DNA of 28,114 bases from an uncultured Candidatus Saccharibacteria bacterium (GCA_964537645.1 CAZICC010000002.1:1-28114), one strand, 5' to 3'. Counted from the first letter of the stretch, positions 495 to 26,786 are shown. A program made the numbers and translations. The notes: generated from the sequence alone by a model not told the origin.

Positions 495-526
495 AAAAAC
501 CGGTCGCCTAAGGCGACCGGTTTTTT
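494..526 (+). terminator. Intrinsic, potentially bidirectional terminator
   Basis: AAAAAA-CCGGTCGCC-TAA-GGCGACCGG-TTTTTT directly after the stop codon. Confidence 0.9.
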
Positions 527-2488: not shown

Positions 2489-3403
2489 ATGATGGAACGC
2501 GAACCTATAATTTTTGGAAAAAATCTGACGTCGGAAGAAAAAAAAGAGTGGCAAGACTTGCTTCAAAAAGCAAGAGAAAAATCCCTAGAACCGATTGAAG
2601 GCGAGTTGGAAAAAACGCCGGAAGAATTACAATTTATCGGAAAAATCAACTTATGGACGAATGAAGAATTAAAAGAGATGGGGATATCGGAAGATTTTTT
2701 GGTGAAGCCGGAGCAAATCCATTTTTTGTCTCATGATGATTACAGCGCTAAATTTTTTAAAGATGTCAATTCTGGGGCTATCTGCGATCCCACCACCCAA
2801 ATAATTTTTATAGACAAATCCGCGCGCCGCAGAACTGAATTATATCGAACTATCTTTCATGAAATTCTTCACTTAGCATCTTATTATAAAGGCAAGGTTT
2901 ACCGCGAAGAAAAAAAACTTAGAGAATATAGAAGCGGTTACGGCATTATTTCTGGATTAGAAAAATATCACCAACATTTATCGGCATTCAACGAAGCGAT
3001 GATTGACAAAGTTCGGGGAGAAATTTTTCGGAAACATTTGGACGAATTTTTTGAAGAATTCCAATTGACTCAACAGGAACGCAAAGAAACCTTTCCTTAT
3101 AATCCGTATGAAGATGTTGTGGATATTATAATTGATAAAATAGCCGCGAAGAACGGCGAATCAAGGGATAAGGTTTGGAAAAGGTTTAAAAAAGGGCTTT
3201 TCACGGGCGAAATGATGCATTTGCGGGAAGTGGAAAGAGTTTTCGGCAAGGACGCCCTCAAAATCATTGGGATGGGAGCGATAGCGCCCGACAAACCCTT
3301 TGATTGGGATACTTTTAAAAAAATCAAAAAGTATTTCAAAGTCGACGACGAAACCGAACGACAAAAGATGAATGAAGAGATTTTGAAAACGACTAATCGG
3401 TAA
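2489..3403 (+). CDS. Hypothetical protein with zincin-like HExxH motif (paralog 2)
   Basis: 304-aa ORF with IFHEILHLAS and FNEAMID; shares EPIIxGKNLT, KPEQxH, IDKSA and FKKGLFTGEMMHLREVERVFGKDALK with paralog 1. Confidence 0.85.
   Translation: MMEREPIIFGKNLTSEEKKEWQDLLQKAREKSLEPIEGELEKTPEELQFIGKINLWTNEELKEMGISEDFLVKPEQIHFLSHDDYSAKFFKDVNSGAICDPTTQIIFIDKSARRRTELYRTIFHEILHLASYYKGKVYREEKKLREYRSGYGIISGLEKYHQHLSAFNEAMIDKVRGEIFRKHLDEFFEEFQLTQQERKETFPYNPYEDVVDIIIDKIAAKNGESRDKVWKRFKKGLFTGEMMHLREVERVFGKDALKIIGMGAIAPDKPFDWDTFKKIKKYFKVDDETERQKMNEEILKTTNR
3206..3258 (+). repeat. 53-nt block identical to 2244-2296
   Basis: Direct sequence comparison by eye. Confidence 0.9.
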
Positions 3404-3415
3404 CTGTTCCAATTT

Positions 3416-3856
3416 ATGTTCGAGATGTTTAAAGGCCCGGCCGCTGAAACCGGCGAAAAGGGTCTCAAAAAAGAAGAAGGCGAAGAAATGGCGGAAGTAG
3501 ATTTTGAGAACCTTAAAAAAGGCGACAAGTTGGTGGTGGAAACCGGAGACGATGAGGGCGGGATTTCCAAATACGAAATCATCGTTGACGGGAAAACAAA
3601 GCATGCCCTGCGGGTTTCGGTCAGGAGCGAATGGGGGAAGGAAATCGAAGAGTTCACGGCCCGGATGATGGGCGGCCTGACAATGGAGAAAGGCGAGACG
3701 CGGGGCCTGATAAAAGTCAGCGGCAAGGAAGAAAAGAACTGCCTTTATTTCCAAAATCTCAAGGACGCCAAAACGGAACTGCGCGCCGGGGCGAGGCGCA
3801 CCCGGCCGATAGGAAAAATTGTGGTGATTAAAAAGGAGGAGAAAAAAGAAAGGTAA
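3416..3856 (+). CDS. Hypothetical protein
   Basis: 146-aa ORF that fills the gap between paralog 2 and grpE on the operon strand; no family recognised. Confidence 0.75.
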   Translation: MFEMFKGPAAETGEKGLKKEEGEEMAEVDFENLKKGDKLVVETGDDEGGISKYEIIVDGKTKHALRVSVRSEWGKEIEEFTARMMGGLTMEKGETRGLIKVSGKEEKNCLYFQNLKDAKTELRAGARRTRPIGKIVVIKKEEKKER

Positions 3857-3895: not shown

Positions 3896-4489
3896 ATGCT
3901 CGATGAATTAAATAAAAAAGAAGAACAATCCGCCCAAGGCGGACAAGAAGCCGCCGAAAAAGCGGTTGATGAGATTGCCGCGTCGGCTTCGCCTCCTCGC
4001 GATGACAAAGAAGAAACGCCTCGCGATGACGAGAGCGAATTGGAGAAAGCTAAGCGCGAGCGGGGTGAATATCTTGCCGGATGGCAAAGAGCCAAGGCGG
4101 ACTTTTTGAATTACCAGAAAGACGAAAAGAAGCGGTTGGAGGAATTTTTGAAATTTTGCGAAGCTGGGTTGATTGGCGATTTATTGCCGGTTCTGGACAG
4201 TTTCGATTTGGCTTTGAATGAGATTGCTTCGTCGGCTCCGCCTCCTCGCAATGACAAATTGGCCAAAGGCTTTTTCCTCATCAAGTCCCAGATGGACGAG
4301 ATTTTGAAAAAGAGGGGATTGGAGCCGGTGAAATCCGTCGGCGAAAAATTCAACCCGGAATTTCACGAAGCGGTGGCGACGGTTGAGGACTCTTCCAAGG
4401 AATTCCAAACAATCGTTGAAGAAATACAAAAAGGATACGCGCTCAACGGCAGAACGTTGAGAGCGGCAAAGGTGAAGATAATCAAATAA
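3896..4489 (+). CDS. grpE: Nucleotide exchange factor GrpE, with two repeat-derived peptide segments
   Basis: QRAKADFLNYQK, LLPVLDSFDLAL, GEKFNPEFHEAV and QKGYALNGRTLRAAKVKI motifs; lies upstream of dnaK. Confidence 0.96.
   Translation: MLDELNKKEEQSAQGGQEAAEKAVDEIAASASPPRDDKEETPRDDESELEKAKRERGEYLAGWQRAKADFLNYQKDEKKRLEEFLKFCEAGLIGDLLPVLDSFDLALNEIASSAPPPRNDKLAKGFFLIKSQMDEILKKRGLEPVKSVGEKFNPEFHEAVATVEDSSKEFQTIVEEIQKGYALNGRTLRAAKVKIIK
3971..4006. repeat. 36-nt palindromic repeat in-frame in grpE (copy A; partial copy at 4019-4030)
   Basis: GAGATTGCCGCGTCGGCTTCGCCTCCTCGCGATGAC encodes EIAASASPPRDD; 32/36 identical to copy B. Confidence 0.85.
4220..4255. repeat. 36-nt palindromic repeat in-frame in grpE (copy B)
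   Basis: GAGATTGCTTCGTCGGCTCCGCCTCCTCGCAATGAC encodes EIASSAPPPRND; internal ATTGC...GCAAT palindrome. Confidence 0.85.
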
Positions 4490-4602
4490 TTTTGAATTTT
4501 TAATTTTGAATCAATTTTCAATTATCTAATTTCAAAAAATAATTTTAAAATTGAAACATTCAAAAATTTATTCGAAATTCAAAATTCAGAATTTAAAATT
4601 AA
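4488..4602. repeat. AT-rich heptamer-period imperfect hairpin between grpE and dnaK
   Basis: Left arm has TTTTGAA/TTTTTAA units and right arm has AAATTC/AAAATTC units that are reverse-complementary to them. Confidence 0.65.
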
Positions 4603-4673: not shown

Positions 4674-6569
<1,896 letters not shown>

Positions 6570-17284: not shown

Positions 17285-17389
17285 AAAAGCTTGTTTCAAT
17301 CAGTCGCCTCTAATATTGGAACGAGTATTCTAATTTGTCGTTCTCGCTATTCCTCCTTTTCCCTCTCTCTTTCATCCTCTTCATTATTT

Positions 17390-17460
17390 GTCATTCCGGC
17401 CTCCGGGCCGGAATTCGTATTTTCTGGATTCCGCATAACGTTTCGCGTTTACGAAATGAC
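17390..17460. repeat. Head-to-head doublet of GTCATTCC...GGAAT palindromic units (dRS3/REP-like)
   Basis: GTCATTCCGGCCTCCGGGCCGGAATTC (17390-17416) followed by the degenerate inverse unit GGATTCCGC...CGAAATGAC. Confidence 0.7.
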
Positions 17461-17474
17461 GGTTTTTAAACGGT

Positions 17475-18759: not shown

Positions 18760-18916
18760 AGGAAATCTGTTCTAATAAAATTTTCATAAGGGACCGGCCG
18801 GAAAACAATCTTTACAAGCGGTATAAAAACTGATAGAGATTCCTCGCTTCGCTCGGAATGACAGAAAAATAAAGGCCGTGGGGTCCCCAAAGAAAATTTT
18901 ATAGAATAGATTTCCT
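18760..18916 (+). mobile_element. ~157-nt MITE-like structured element, copy 1
   Basis: Imperfect ~25-bp terminal inverted repeats (AGGAAATCTGTTCTA...TAGAATAGATTTCCT), an inner GC stem and the core GAGATTCCTCGCTTCGCTCGGAATGAC; homologous to the reverse complement of 21400-21563. Confidence 0.7.
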
Positions 18917-18925
18917 TTTTCTTGT

Positions 18926-18998
18926 CCGCCCATAGCTCAGTTGGTAGAGCAGCTCCCTTTTAAGGAGAGGGTCCCAGGTTCGAATCCTGGTGGGCGGA
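18926..18998 (+). tRNA. tRNA-Lys (anticodon UUU)
   Basis: Full cloverleaf: acceptor CCGCCCA/TGGGCGG, D-arm GCTC/GAGC, anticodon loop CTTTTAA and T-arm CCAGG-TTCGAAT-CCTGG. CCA is not encoded, and there is one G-A mismatch at the top of the anticodon stem. Confidence 0.95.
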
Positions 18999-19007
18999 TA
19001 CGTTTGA

Positions 19008-21403: not shown

Positions 21404-21563
21404 GGAAACTTCTTTTTTAAATTTTCTCCGGGGACCCCCCCGCGACCTTTATTTTTTTGTCATTCCGAGCGTAGCGAGGAATCTCTATAAATTTTAATGC
21501 CGTGTTTTAAATTTATTGTTCGGTCGGCCCCAAATGAAAATTTTATAAAAGAAGTTTCCTTAT
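21400..21563 (-). mobile_element. ~160-nt MITE-like structured element, copy 2 (inverted relative to copy 1)
   Basis: Perfect 17-bp terminal IR ATAAGGAAACTTCTTTT/AAAAGAAGTTTCCTTAT; core 21458-21488 matches the reverse complement of 18833-18863 at 30/31. Confidence 0.7.
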
Positions 21564-24932: not shown

Positions 24933-26786
24933 ATGAGCGACACAACTCTTTTCGCGGAAACAAACTTCAGGAACGAGCGCAAAAGGTTCGGCATCAAAGT
25001 CAACGACCGTCGGAAACACGTTTACATCGTCGGGAAAACCGGCATGGGCAAAACGACCCTGCTGGAGAACATGGCCATCCAGGACATCCGGGCCGGCCGA
25101 GGCATAGGCATCGTTGACCCGCACGGCGAATTCGCCGAGAAGATGCTGGATTTCGTTCCGCCCGAACGCCTGGACGACGTGGTTTACATCAATCCGGCCG
25201 ATTTGGACTGGCCGGTGGCGTTCAACGTGATGGAAAAAATCGGTTCCGAACAGCGCCATCTCGTCGCTTCGGGATTGATGAGCGTTTTCAAAAAAATCTG
25301 GATTGACCTTTGGAGCGCCCGGATGGAATACATTCTGAACAACACCATCCTCGCCCTTTTGGAATATCCCGATTCCACGCTGCTCGGCGTCAACCGGATG
25401 CTGGCCGACAAAGATTTCCGCAAAGAGGTGATTTCGCGCGTTACCGACCCGGTGGTCCAATCGTTCTGGACAATGGAATTCGCCCGCTACCACGACAAAT
25501 TCCAATCCGAAGCCATCGCGCCCATTCAAAACAAAGCCGGCCAGTTCACCGCCAATCCGGTCATCAGAAACATCATCGGCCAGCCGAAATCCACCGTTGA
25601 AATACGGAAAATAATGGACGAGGGGAAAATTCTGATTATGAATCTTTCCAAAGGGAAAATCGGCGAAGACAACAGCCGGCTGCTCGGCGCCCTGATGATT
25701 ACCCGCTTGCAACTCGCGGCGATGTCGCGGGTTGACATTCCCGAGGACGAACGACGCGACTTCTTCCTTTACGTTGACGAATTCCAGAATTTCGCCACCG
25801 ATTCCTTCAAATATATCCTGTCGGAAGCGCGGAAGTACCGCCTTTCTTTGACTTTGGCCCATCAGTATATCACCCAAATGGAAGAAACCGTGCGCGACGC
25901 CATTTTCGGAAACGTCGGCACCCTGATTCTTTTTCGGGTCGGGGCGGCAGACGCTGAATTCCTGGAAAAAGAATTCGCGCCGGAATTCACGGCCGACGAC
26001 CTGGTTAATCTGGGATTGGGCGACATTTATCTGAAACTGATGATAAACGGGGTGGCGTCGCATCCTTTTTCCGCCCACGGATTGGGGCCGGTTCAAATGC
26101 CGGAAAAATCCCGCAAAGAAGAAATTATCGCGAAATCGCGGCAAAAATACGCCCTCCCGCGCCTGCAAGTGGAAGAAACGATTAAAAAATGGGCCGAACC
26201 GACGGTTTCTTCCGCCGCGGCTTCTTTTGGGGCCGCCCCTTCAACGGACGCCGGCGGCGCGCCCGCGTCGCCGAAGCCGGGTTTTGAATCGGAATGCTGG
26301 GAATGCGGGAAAAAAACCACGACGCCCTTCCAGCCCGACGGCAAGCGGCCGGTCTATTGTCCGGTTTGCCTGGAAAAATTCCGGAAAGGCGAAATTTTGC
26401 CGCATACGGTTCACGAAAGCAAAATTTCGTCCCGAACGGAACCGAGGGGCCGTCCGCCTTACAGCGTTTCTCCCGGCCGCCGGCCTTCGCCGCCGCCCGG
26501 GCCGCGAATGGCCCGCGGAACGACTTCCGAACCGGTCGGGCGCGAAGTACCGAAACCAATTTCGCTTTCCGAAGCACTGGAATCGGAACGACTGGCAAAA
26601 ACCGCAACGGACGGTTCTGGGCCGGAAAATAAAAAAAAGAAAGAGATCAACCTCGGCGATTTGAGGAAGACGCTGGAAGAATCGCTCAAAAACGTTTCCG
26701 CCGGCAGAGAATCGGGCAAAGAGCCGGAGAACGGAAGCGCGGAAAATAAAAAAACCATCAAGCCAGGGGAAGTGGTAAAATTTTAA
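24933..26786 (+). CDS. VirD4/TrwB/HerA-like P-loop ATPase with a C-terminal CxxC-x17-CxxC domain
   Basis: Walker A GKTGMGKT, DPHGE, Walker B LYVDEFQNF and SEARKYRLSLTLAHQY; C-terminal CWECGKKTTTPFQPDGKRPVYCPVC. Confidence 0.9.
   Translation: MSDTTLFAETNFRNERKRFGIKVNDRRKHVYIVGKTGMGKTTLLENMAIQDIRAGRGIGIVDPHGEFAEKMLDFVPPERLDDVVYINPADLDWPVAFNVMEKIGSEQRHLVASGLMSVFKKIWIDLWSARMEYILNNTILALLEYPDSTLLGVNRMLADKDFRKEVISRVTDPVVQSFWTMEFARYHDKFQSEAIAPIQNKAGQFTANPVIRNIIGQPKSTVEIRKIMDEGKILIMNLSKGKIGEDNSRLLGALMITRLQLAAMSRVDIPEDERRDFFLYVDEFQNFATDSFKYILSEARKYRLSLTLAHQYITQMEETVRDAIFGNVGTLILFRVGAADAEFLEKEFAPEFTADDLVNLGLGDIYLKLMINGVASHPFSAHGLGPVQMPEKSRKEEIIAKSRQKYALPRLQVEETIKKWAEPTVSSAAASFGAAPSTDAGGAPASPKPGFESECWECGKKTTTPFQPDGKRPVYCPVCLEKFRKGEILPHTVHESKISSRTEPRGRPPYSVSPGRRPSPPPGPRMARGTTSEPVGREVPKPISLSEALESERLAKTATDGSGPENKKKKEINLGDLRKTLEESLKNVSAGRESGKEPENGSAENKKTIKPGEVVKF

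Follow-up and report, generated by a model that had tools for sequence, protein, structure and literature searches.

Why does the gene of a conserved chaperone cofactor carry, twice and in frame, a short repeat that has the features of intergenic DNA? The question is raised by grpE in the 28,114-nt stretch CAZICC010000002.1:1-28114 (assembly GCA_964537645.1), here called the window. An initial annotation, made from the sequence alone, had described two 36-nt palindromic copies and a 12-nt partial copy within this gene. It compared them with the repetitive extragenic palindromic (REP) element dRS3, took the Rickettsia palindromic elements (RPE) as precedent, and proposed that selfish repeat DNA was being recruited at insertion-tolerant sites of a protein in a genome resembling those of the candidate phyla radiation (CPR). 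Our analysis supports the core of this proposal: the two grpE cassettes very probably are units of a very widespread REP-type repeat, read in frame and persisting at sites where GrpE tolerates change.

The identity of the host gene is clear. Its product matches Pfam PF01025 over the full length of the profile (positions 8-165 of 165; E = 4.5e-40, 137.5 bits), retains every family-invariant residue in an alignment of 26 sequences, has 2005 homologs and aligns in a PDB search with the solved GrpE structures 4ANI and 1DKG. The two 36-nt cassettes (Table 1) are identical at 32 of 36 positions, or 37 of 41 when the common flanks, AT before and AAA after, are counted, and the partial copy is identical to the 3' end of copy 1 (12/12), all as first described. 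Both full copies have the CGTC/TGTC head on the minus strand. The pattern GAGATTSC-N8-30-GSAATGAC has three matches in the window against 0.01 in shuffled sequences, namely copy 2 and two intergenic cores at 18836-18862 (+) and 21459-21485 (-), so the likeness of the cassette ends to these cores was correctly recognized. Copy 1 escapes the exact pattern by a single A-to-G change, which leaves GCGAT as the mutated 3' arm of its outer stem. The term palindromic holds for the repeat family and fits the grpE copies poorly: both form weak hairpins (fold z-scores about 0 to -1.4), copy 2 retaining a 5-bp outer and a 3-bp inner stem, while the outer stem of copy 1 is gone in the predicted fold. The 36-nt unit is open in five of its six frames; among the resulting peptides, the one read in grpE has the lowest charge and hydrophobicity. 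A hairpin scan of the genes in the window revealed no other convincing in-frame GC-rich hairpin.

Table 1. Positions of grpE, its repeat cassettes and the intergenic repeat units of the window
Feature	Position	Strand	Description
grpE coding sequence	3896..4489	+	197 aa; from the list of open reading frames, Pfam, PDB matches and homologs
Small palindrome	3929..3943	+	TCCGCCCAAGGCGGA (SAQGG); GrpE N-terminal tail; second, different kind of palindrome
REP cassette, copy 1	3971..4006	+	36 nt, GAGATTGCCGCGTCGGCTTCGCCTCCTCGCGATGAC; in-frame EIAASASPPRDD, residues 26-37
Partial copy	4019..4030	+	12 nt, CCTCGCGATGAC; 3' end of cassette; translated PRDD
REP cassette, copy 2	4220..4255	+	36 nt, GAGATTGCTTCGTCGGCTCCGCCTCCTCGCAATGAC; in-frame EIASSAPPPRND, residues 109-120
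Canonical CGTC-type REP	17389..17417	+	Between FKBP gene and dnaJ; TGTC head, perfect 9-bp stem ATTCCGGCC, 4-nt loop
Degenerate REP unit, opposite orientation	about 17425-17461	opposite to 17389..17417	CGTC head, CCA tail, TGGATTCCGC...CGAAATGACG
27-nt REP core	18836..18862	head strand -	TGTC-ATTCCGAGCG-AAG-CGAGGAAT-CTC; intergenic, downstream of dnaJ
Second 27-nt REP core	21459..21485	head strand +	Intergenic, downstream of secF

The same repeat occurs far outside this genome. A loose pattern, GAGATTGC-N15-25-GCAATGAC, was scanned over a viral collection and returned a clear family together with chance matches; about half of the matches were due to chance, and it was abandoned as a family definition and tightened. 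Members of the family consist of GAGATTGC-(C/T)NCG, a hairpin and CTCGCAATGAC, in this order, the flanks being conserved and the inner hairpin variable. With the tighter pattern GAGATTGCYNCG-N8-24-CTCGCAATGAC, a scan of one genome per species gave at least 120 loci with at least 163 copies, whose lengths lie between 31 and 47 nt and peak at 34, 36 and 38 nt. The record titles carry at least 15 phylum-level labels, including, among the matches listed, Chloroflexota, Planctomycetota, Patescibacteria, Bacillota, Bacteroidota, Ignavibacteria, alpha-, gamma- and 'delta'-proteobacteria, Armatimonadota, Atribacterota, Omnitrophota, Nitrospirota, Latescibacterota, Margulisiibacteriota, Leptospirales and others. 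Among 162 listed genome copies, the base 3' of ATGAC is A in 92 (TGTC on the other strand) and G in 48 (CGTC). A second scan looked in metagenome contigs for the inner subtype in its exact form, GATTGC-NN-CGTCGGCT-N-CGCCTCCTCGC, and found at least 120 loci and at least 140 copies, in loci of 40-76% G+C. At least eight of these copies match copy 2 with 100% identity, and their three loci (L274, L331 and L350) have flanks other than those of the window; L331 is a non-coding array of six copies. Copy 1 belongs to the GCCGCG subtype and differs from common metagenome variants at two to three positions. The commonest metagenome variants with the same core end in TGG on the sense strand, that is, CCA on the head strand.

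Read on the strand opposite to grpE, the element consists of a (T/C)GTC head, ATTGC, an internal loop, a variable inner hairpin, GCAAT and a 3-nt tail (CTC or CCA). Among 33 distinct 38-nt copies, six of the seven inner-helix pairs vary on both sides, with 54 compensatory cells; the scan pattern fixes the closing G-C pair of this helix and leaves the other six free. This covariation score was reached by none of 500 shuffles, and the signal was lost when the pairing register was slid. Since the inner pairs covary beyond any shuffle, the element is a conserved frame around a freely covarying hairpin. Rfam contains no family for it, whether the window was searched at gathering thresholds or four repeat-bearing loci at E <= 1. 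Literature searches with the repeat sequence strings returned chance primer matches only, and those combining CPR with REP, or RPE with GrpE, returned nothing specific. A kink-turn or another named RNA motif was considered for the conserved internal loop and dropped by eye, because the lengths of the loop strands do not fit. Units of this REP family form dense arrays, about 50-150 nt apart, in L331 (1.9 kb), in two Chloroflexus loci (L133 and L185) and in Caldatribacterium (L172).

In the public genomes, 42 of 151 evaluable copies (28%) lie where the reading frame stays open for 120 nt on either side, compared with 75% of sites chosen at random in these loci, which marks the family as mainly intergenic. 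Occasional in-frame units were found in unrelated proteins. Pfam confirmed the host proteins in three cases: a GMP synthase (L155), a PD-(D/E)XK nuclease (L152) and a PD40-repeat protein (L160). The GMP synthase gene (CAYNRM010000012.1, labelled as a gammaproteobacterial metagenome-assembled genome) carries at about 4466-4543 an in-frame inverted pair, VIARPRSGAAIS and EIASEGAPRND, within the glutamine amidotransferase domain, with intact Pfam domains on both sides. The nuclease, of 941 aa, contains EIASPPAVARND, and a long uncharacterised open reading frame (ORF) in L368 has SLRGGEADAAIQ in frame, as judged by translation alone. No transposase domain was detected in the ORFs of the window scanned with Pfam. 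An all-against-all clustering of 2144 ORFs located within 2 kb of 407 elements recovered only ubiquitous families as recurrent neighbours, such as ABC ATPases and response regulators, and a co-occurring mobilising gene was rejected on this ground. The absence of a dedicated transposase matches the published description of CGTC-tagged REPs, as weak negative evidence.

The abundance of the repeat is also visible in the metagenome from which the window came, a subsurface sample, where depth was taken as the assembler word depth of Logan contigs. Copy 1 has a word depth of 211 and copy 2 one of 263, compared with 4.4-5.9 for the adjacent parts of grpE, so that cassette words are about 40-60 times deeper than their flanks. 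The jump from about 5 to more than 200 occurs at 3972-4005 and at 4210-4277. Among the 33 contigs matching the window, 20 match over part of their length only, and the depth shows a pile-up of matches on the cassettes. Such a repeat breaks up assemblies and, in metagenomes of this kind, could give rise to chimeric joins or to errors in binning.

The cassettes are missing from the closest relatives of this GrpE. The protein was aligned with 25 homologs, and a codon alignment was made with the DNA of the eight closest orthologs. Copy 1 is absent from all eight, and the cassette peptide is conserved in none of the orthologs. In the nearest relatives, which share 84-85% nucleotide identity in the core, the loop reads AQ(I/F)GETSDPKF and the tail is free of cassettes. 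From the region of the partial copy, 15 nt (ACGCCTCGCGATGAC) recur in the N-terminal tail of the ortholog L005.

An AlphaFold2 model was built from the 26-sequence alignment (mean predicted local distance difference test score, pLDDT, 75.9). Residues 1-41 mostly have pLDDT below 50, and this stretch contains copy 1 and stops just short of the partial copy, which places copy 1 in a predicted disordered N-terminal tail. The model continues with a helix (43-112), a turn (113-118) and a second helix (119-139), the lowest confidence of the folded part being at 111-120. Because residues 109-120 span the end of the first helix, the turn and the start of the second helix, copy 2 encodes all three in the predicted structure. 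We take this site to be the tip of the helix pair with which each monomer takes part in the dimer's four-helix bundle (1DKG). The tip is the most variable part of the GrpE fold among the orthologs. The sites are thus tolerant of change, as had been proposed, in the sense of a disordered tail and a variable tip; the description as insertions does not extend to the loop copy, as discussed below.

Because identical copies occur at unrelated loci, the cassette words are 40-60 times deeper than their surroundings and the nearest orthologs lack the cassettes, the two segments are foreign to grpE. The initial annotation would have been contradicted by a lack of further copies or by a peptide conserved among orthologs, and neither was found. 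The preferred course of events would begin with REP-type elements, for which intergenic DNA is the usual place of accumulation. Two 36-nt units, divisible by three in length and free of stops in this frame, would have become fixed inside grpE, with no dedicated transposase in evidence, and would persist where GrpE tolerates change, in the disordered N-terminal tail and at the inter-helix tip. Translation would then yield passenger peptides of the form EIA..PPR(D/N)D, which are small, polar and proline-rich, and the loop copy would by now supply the helix-turn-helix connection itself. Most likely the cassettes have no function, their products being putative passenger peptides.

Several points weigh against this reading. 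The copy 2 segment is only five residues longer than the connector of the nearest ortholog, not 12, and the solved GrpE structures align through it with gaps of only one or two residues. For these two reasons copy 2 stands in for the native turn and is better described as a replacement than as a net insertion. A simple insertion model for the loop copy was rejected, as the nearest loop is five residues shorter and offers no matching empty-site flanks; neither a target-site duplication nor an empty site with identical flanks was found. A more distant ortholog, L003, shares the flanks AATGAGATTG...AAATTGG(C/T)CAAAGG, which could reflect an older insertion or recombination instead of a recent event. 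The 36-nt ATTGC subtype has no third copy in the window, where its copy number can be assessed for 28 kb of this genome only, and other organisms could account for part or all of the high depth in the sample. Copy 2 is a point of breakage of the Logan contigs, which overlap there by 24 nt only, so that the join across this copy depends on the original assembly and on the GrpE alignment being continuous. Translation of the peptides, and their neutrality or near-neutrality, is itself putative. Finally, the two copies share orientation, frame and flanks.

This last point bears on the number of acquisitions. It is possible, although we hold it only tentatively, that a single unit was acquired, probably that of the loop, and that the N-terminal and partial copies arose from it by internal duplication or gene conversion. 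The close identity of the copies within a common AT/AAA frame and the lack of a third copy nearby are what such an origin would leave behind, and the perfect match of the partial copy to copy 1, including the unusual GCGAT, indicates that the tail does undergo local duplication or conversion. The shared frame is weak evidence, since five of six frames of the unit are open. Three of the four differences between the copies (GCCGCG against GCTTCG, and a loop base) fall at positions polymorphic in the family and represent alternative states of common subtypes. For this reason two separate acquisitions, one of the GCCGCG and one of the GCTTCG subtype, seem somewhat the better account; the argument is partly circular, as those positions were left free in the scan.

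Across nine orthologs, at least four different cassettes occur at this helix-turn-helix tip. In L003 it is a related unit whose ATTGT/ACAAT arms are compensatory and whose inner hairpin differs, in L006 and L007 an LRQAQG cassette, in L004 and L008 the SAQGGQ palindrome described below, and in the GrpE of the window the CGTC-type unit. L007 and L008 have an additional STGSGQA cassette in a loop of the beta-domain. LRQAQG and STGSGQA are widespread in their own right: the viral collection has 37 loci of the former sequence and 45 of the latter. A bolder view, which we consider doubtful, is that the GrpE tip and N-terminal tail are a recurrent landing site rebuilt by different REP families in Parcubacteria. 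The DNA of the tip might then be targeted by the mechanism that spreads CGTC-type repeats or, alternatively, exchange of the turn might tune the stability of the chaperone cofactor; the helical region of GrpE acts as a thermosensor in other bacteria. If this were so, pan-bacterial REPs would be a regular source of structural, and not just decorative, peptide segments in small CPR proteomes.

Retention of the cassettes for a function is improbable. They might tune how stable the GrpE helical region is or how it senses temperature, provide a flexible N-terminal tail, or act as mRNA hairpins that modulate grpE-dnaK translation, and two observations fit such a role: copy 2 is an integral structural element, with a length about that of solved GrpE structures, and various cassettes recur at one tip. 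However, the orthologs do not conserve the peptide, the grpE hairpins are weak with the outer stem of copy 1 lost, the same repeat sits in unrelated proteins, and a published case has been made against functional constraint on intragenic REPs (PMC3733652). An assembly artefact, in which the high-copy repeat led to a chimeric join or a collapsed repeat in grpE, would explain why Logan contigs start and stop inside copy 2 and why depth rises on the cassettes, but is very improbable: one Logan contig spans the whole of copy 1 with grpE on both sides and continues to the end of copy 2, another runs from copy 2 into grpE, each cassette is flanked in frame by grpE on both sides, GrpE aligns end to end with solved structures with no segment missing or extra, and orthologs from independent samples carry related cassettes at the same sites.

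Three to four intergenic units are present in the window, 55-110 nt downstream of the FKBP gene, dnaJ and secF. The unit between the FKBP gene and dnaJ, TGTC-ATTCCGGCC-TCCG-GGCCGGAAT in full, is a strong hairpin (RNA fold -17.5 kcal/mol, z = -4.0), and together with its degenerate neighbour it forms a tail-to-tail pair of CGTC-type REPs (17389-17461). The core downstream of dnaJ also occurs in nine contigs of the viral collection. [quoted passage not shown] The composite element has terminal inverted repeats of about 25 nt (AGGAAATCTGTTCTAATAAAATTTTC / GAAAATTTTATAGAATAGATTTCCT), its two copies are 83% identical, and the first folds with -55.4 kcal/mol (z = -4.3). The inverted copies flank a tRNA, secD and secF.

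A second kind of palindrome lies in the N-terminal tail of GrpE (Table 1). It is perfect and folds stably (-9.5 kcal/mol, z = -3.5). The 18 nt at 3929-3946 (TCCGCCCAAGGCGGACAA) form the helix-turn-helix tip in the orthologs L004 and L008, and a close variant is found in the N-terminal tail of L003. This SAQGGQ palindrome had no match in the viral collection and was dropped as a candidate widespread repeat; it may be a lineage-specific cassette.

The gene grpE stands in a heat-shock operon context, with hrcA (686-1438) upstream and dnaK (4674-6569) following, and dnaJ, the FKBP gene and secDF are found further along the window. The best named relatives of DnaK, with 72-77% identity, are Patescibacteria/Parcubacteria (Azambacteria, Sungbacteria, Portnoybacteria and Giovannonibacteria), which supports a CPR-like, specifically Parcubacteria-like, host genome, in agreement with the initial annotation. 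Between hrcA and grpE (2489-3856, + strand) there are two ORFs of 304 and 146 aa without Pfam match. ORFs of similar size occupy the same position in the orthologous loci L002, L003, L004 and L008, and the two may be lineage-specific members of the operon. Immediately 3' of the first ORF of the window, a GC-rich perfect hairpin at 500-520 (+), CCGGTCGCCTAAGGCGACCGG, is terminator-like and outside the CGTC family. At 24933-26786 (+) a 617-aa ORF combines TrwB/TraG-type coupling-protein, HerA-like ATPase and treble-clef zinc-finger domains and may belong to a module for conjugation or DNA transfer, in what is a small genome of CPR type. The tRNA at 18925-18999 (+) was called 'tRNA-Stop, anticodon tta' by ARAGORN, while Rfam finds an ordinary tRNA (69.6 bits). 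The suppressor call was rejected, since the anticodon loop CTTTTAA between the stem arms GCTCC/GGAGA is the canonical loop of tRNA-Lys(UUU), and it is probably a register artefact.

The repeat has practical consequences beyond this locus. Its 36-nt sequence is identical in unrelated organisms and breaks assemblies there, and the recurring peptides EIAS..PRND, SLRGGEADEAI and VIARRRSRRSNL can mislead homology searches, gene calling and metagenome binning. The wide distribution of a repeat whose flanks are conserved and whose inner stem covaries, with no transposase in evidence, sharpens the question of how CGTC-type REPs spread and are maintained.

Among the known repeat systems compared is REPIN/RAYT, whose GTAG-type REPs are mobilised by a Y1 HUH transposase. 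They resemble the present repeat as short, GC-rich, dispersed hairpins, sometimes in inverted pairs and mostly extragenic, but the head is TGTC/CGTC here instead of GTAG, and no RAYT or other Y1/HUH transposase was found in the window or recurrently near the 407 elements. With the Neisseria dRS3 elements (ATTCCC-N8-GGGAAT), the intergenic units of the window, TGTC-ATTCC...GGAAT-CTC, share the head, the start of the stem and the size class. The dRS3 elements are integration sites for Neisseria phages and insertion sequence (IS) elements, while no role in phage or IS integration was seen here.

The closest relatives are the CGTC-tagged REPs, a superfamily described by Di Nocera, De Gregorio and Rocco (2013, BMC Genomics 14:522; PMC3733652). 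In that description the units have an unpaired CGTC or TGTC (or CCTC) head, a stem whose first two pairs are A-T pairs and a 3-nt tail, mostly CCA; the published families have a single stem of 8-9 bp with a loop of 4-5 nt and come from five phyla. These REPs are stated to lack a dedicated transposase, and intragenic units are known, for which the published analysis argues against functional constraint. CGTC-1 equals dRS3 of Neisseria, while CGTC-1 and CGTC-4 of R. conorii equal RPE-6 and RPE-4, and the intragenic unit of R. palustris CGTC-3 is listed as VIAGLDPAIH. Back-translated, this peptide gives CGTC-ATTGCCGGG...CCCGGCAAT-CCA, with head, stem start and tail as in the grpE-type element.

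All copies in the window have an unpaired TGTC on the head strand. Their stems start with A-T (ATTGC/GCAAT in copy 2, ATTCC/GGAAT at 17393, 18836 and 21459), and copy 1 keeps A-T and T-A, its third pair being broken on the head strand (a G-T wobble on the sense strand). The window copies end in a CTC tail, the commonest external ones in CCA. The single stem is present in the 17389-17417 unit (9 bp and 4 nt) and roughly in the 27-nt cores, which have 5+2 bp around a 2x2 internal loop and a 3-nt hairpin loop, and it is lacking in the grpE cassettes. The repeat is dispersed, multi-copy and mainly intergenic with occasional intragenic units. Like the published CGTC REPs, and CGTC-3 in particular, its copies often lie downstream of genes in several phyla, include rare in-frame intragenic units and have no dedicated transposase. 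It differs in the 36-nt length of the grpE subtype, in a bipartite stem whose internal loop is conserved and rich in pyrimidines (YNCGTC / TCCTC) and whose inner hairpin is variable, and in at least 15 phylum labels, Patescibacteria included, against the five phyla published. Because the bipartite stem departs from the single 8-9-bp stem, we file the grpE subtype as a structural variant within the CGTC superfamily and not under one of the four named families, a comparison made on their text descriptions. The initial placement as REP/dRS3-like with an RPE precedent fits this superfamily, which shares the head, stem and tail and includes dRS3, RPE-4 and RPE-6.

In its mode of working the grpE case most resembles the RPE, reportedly described by Ogata et al. 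in 2000 and 2002; the classic RPE-1 measures 100-150 nt. Both are selfish palindromic repeats that lie in frame in conserved genes, sometimes twice per gene, and are translated at surface or tolerant positions. The likeness is one of working mode only, the link to the present family running through the published equation of RPE-4 and RPE-6 with CGTC REPs. The host phylum is different, the cassette is 36 nt long, and the loop copy would replace a native turn instead of adding a bulge. The phenomenon, already known from Rickettsia and other bacteria, is thus extended to a CPR bacterium and to a core chaperone cofactor, in which the residues encoded by the repeat are predicted to form an integral helix-turn-helix connection and not an added loop.

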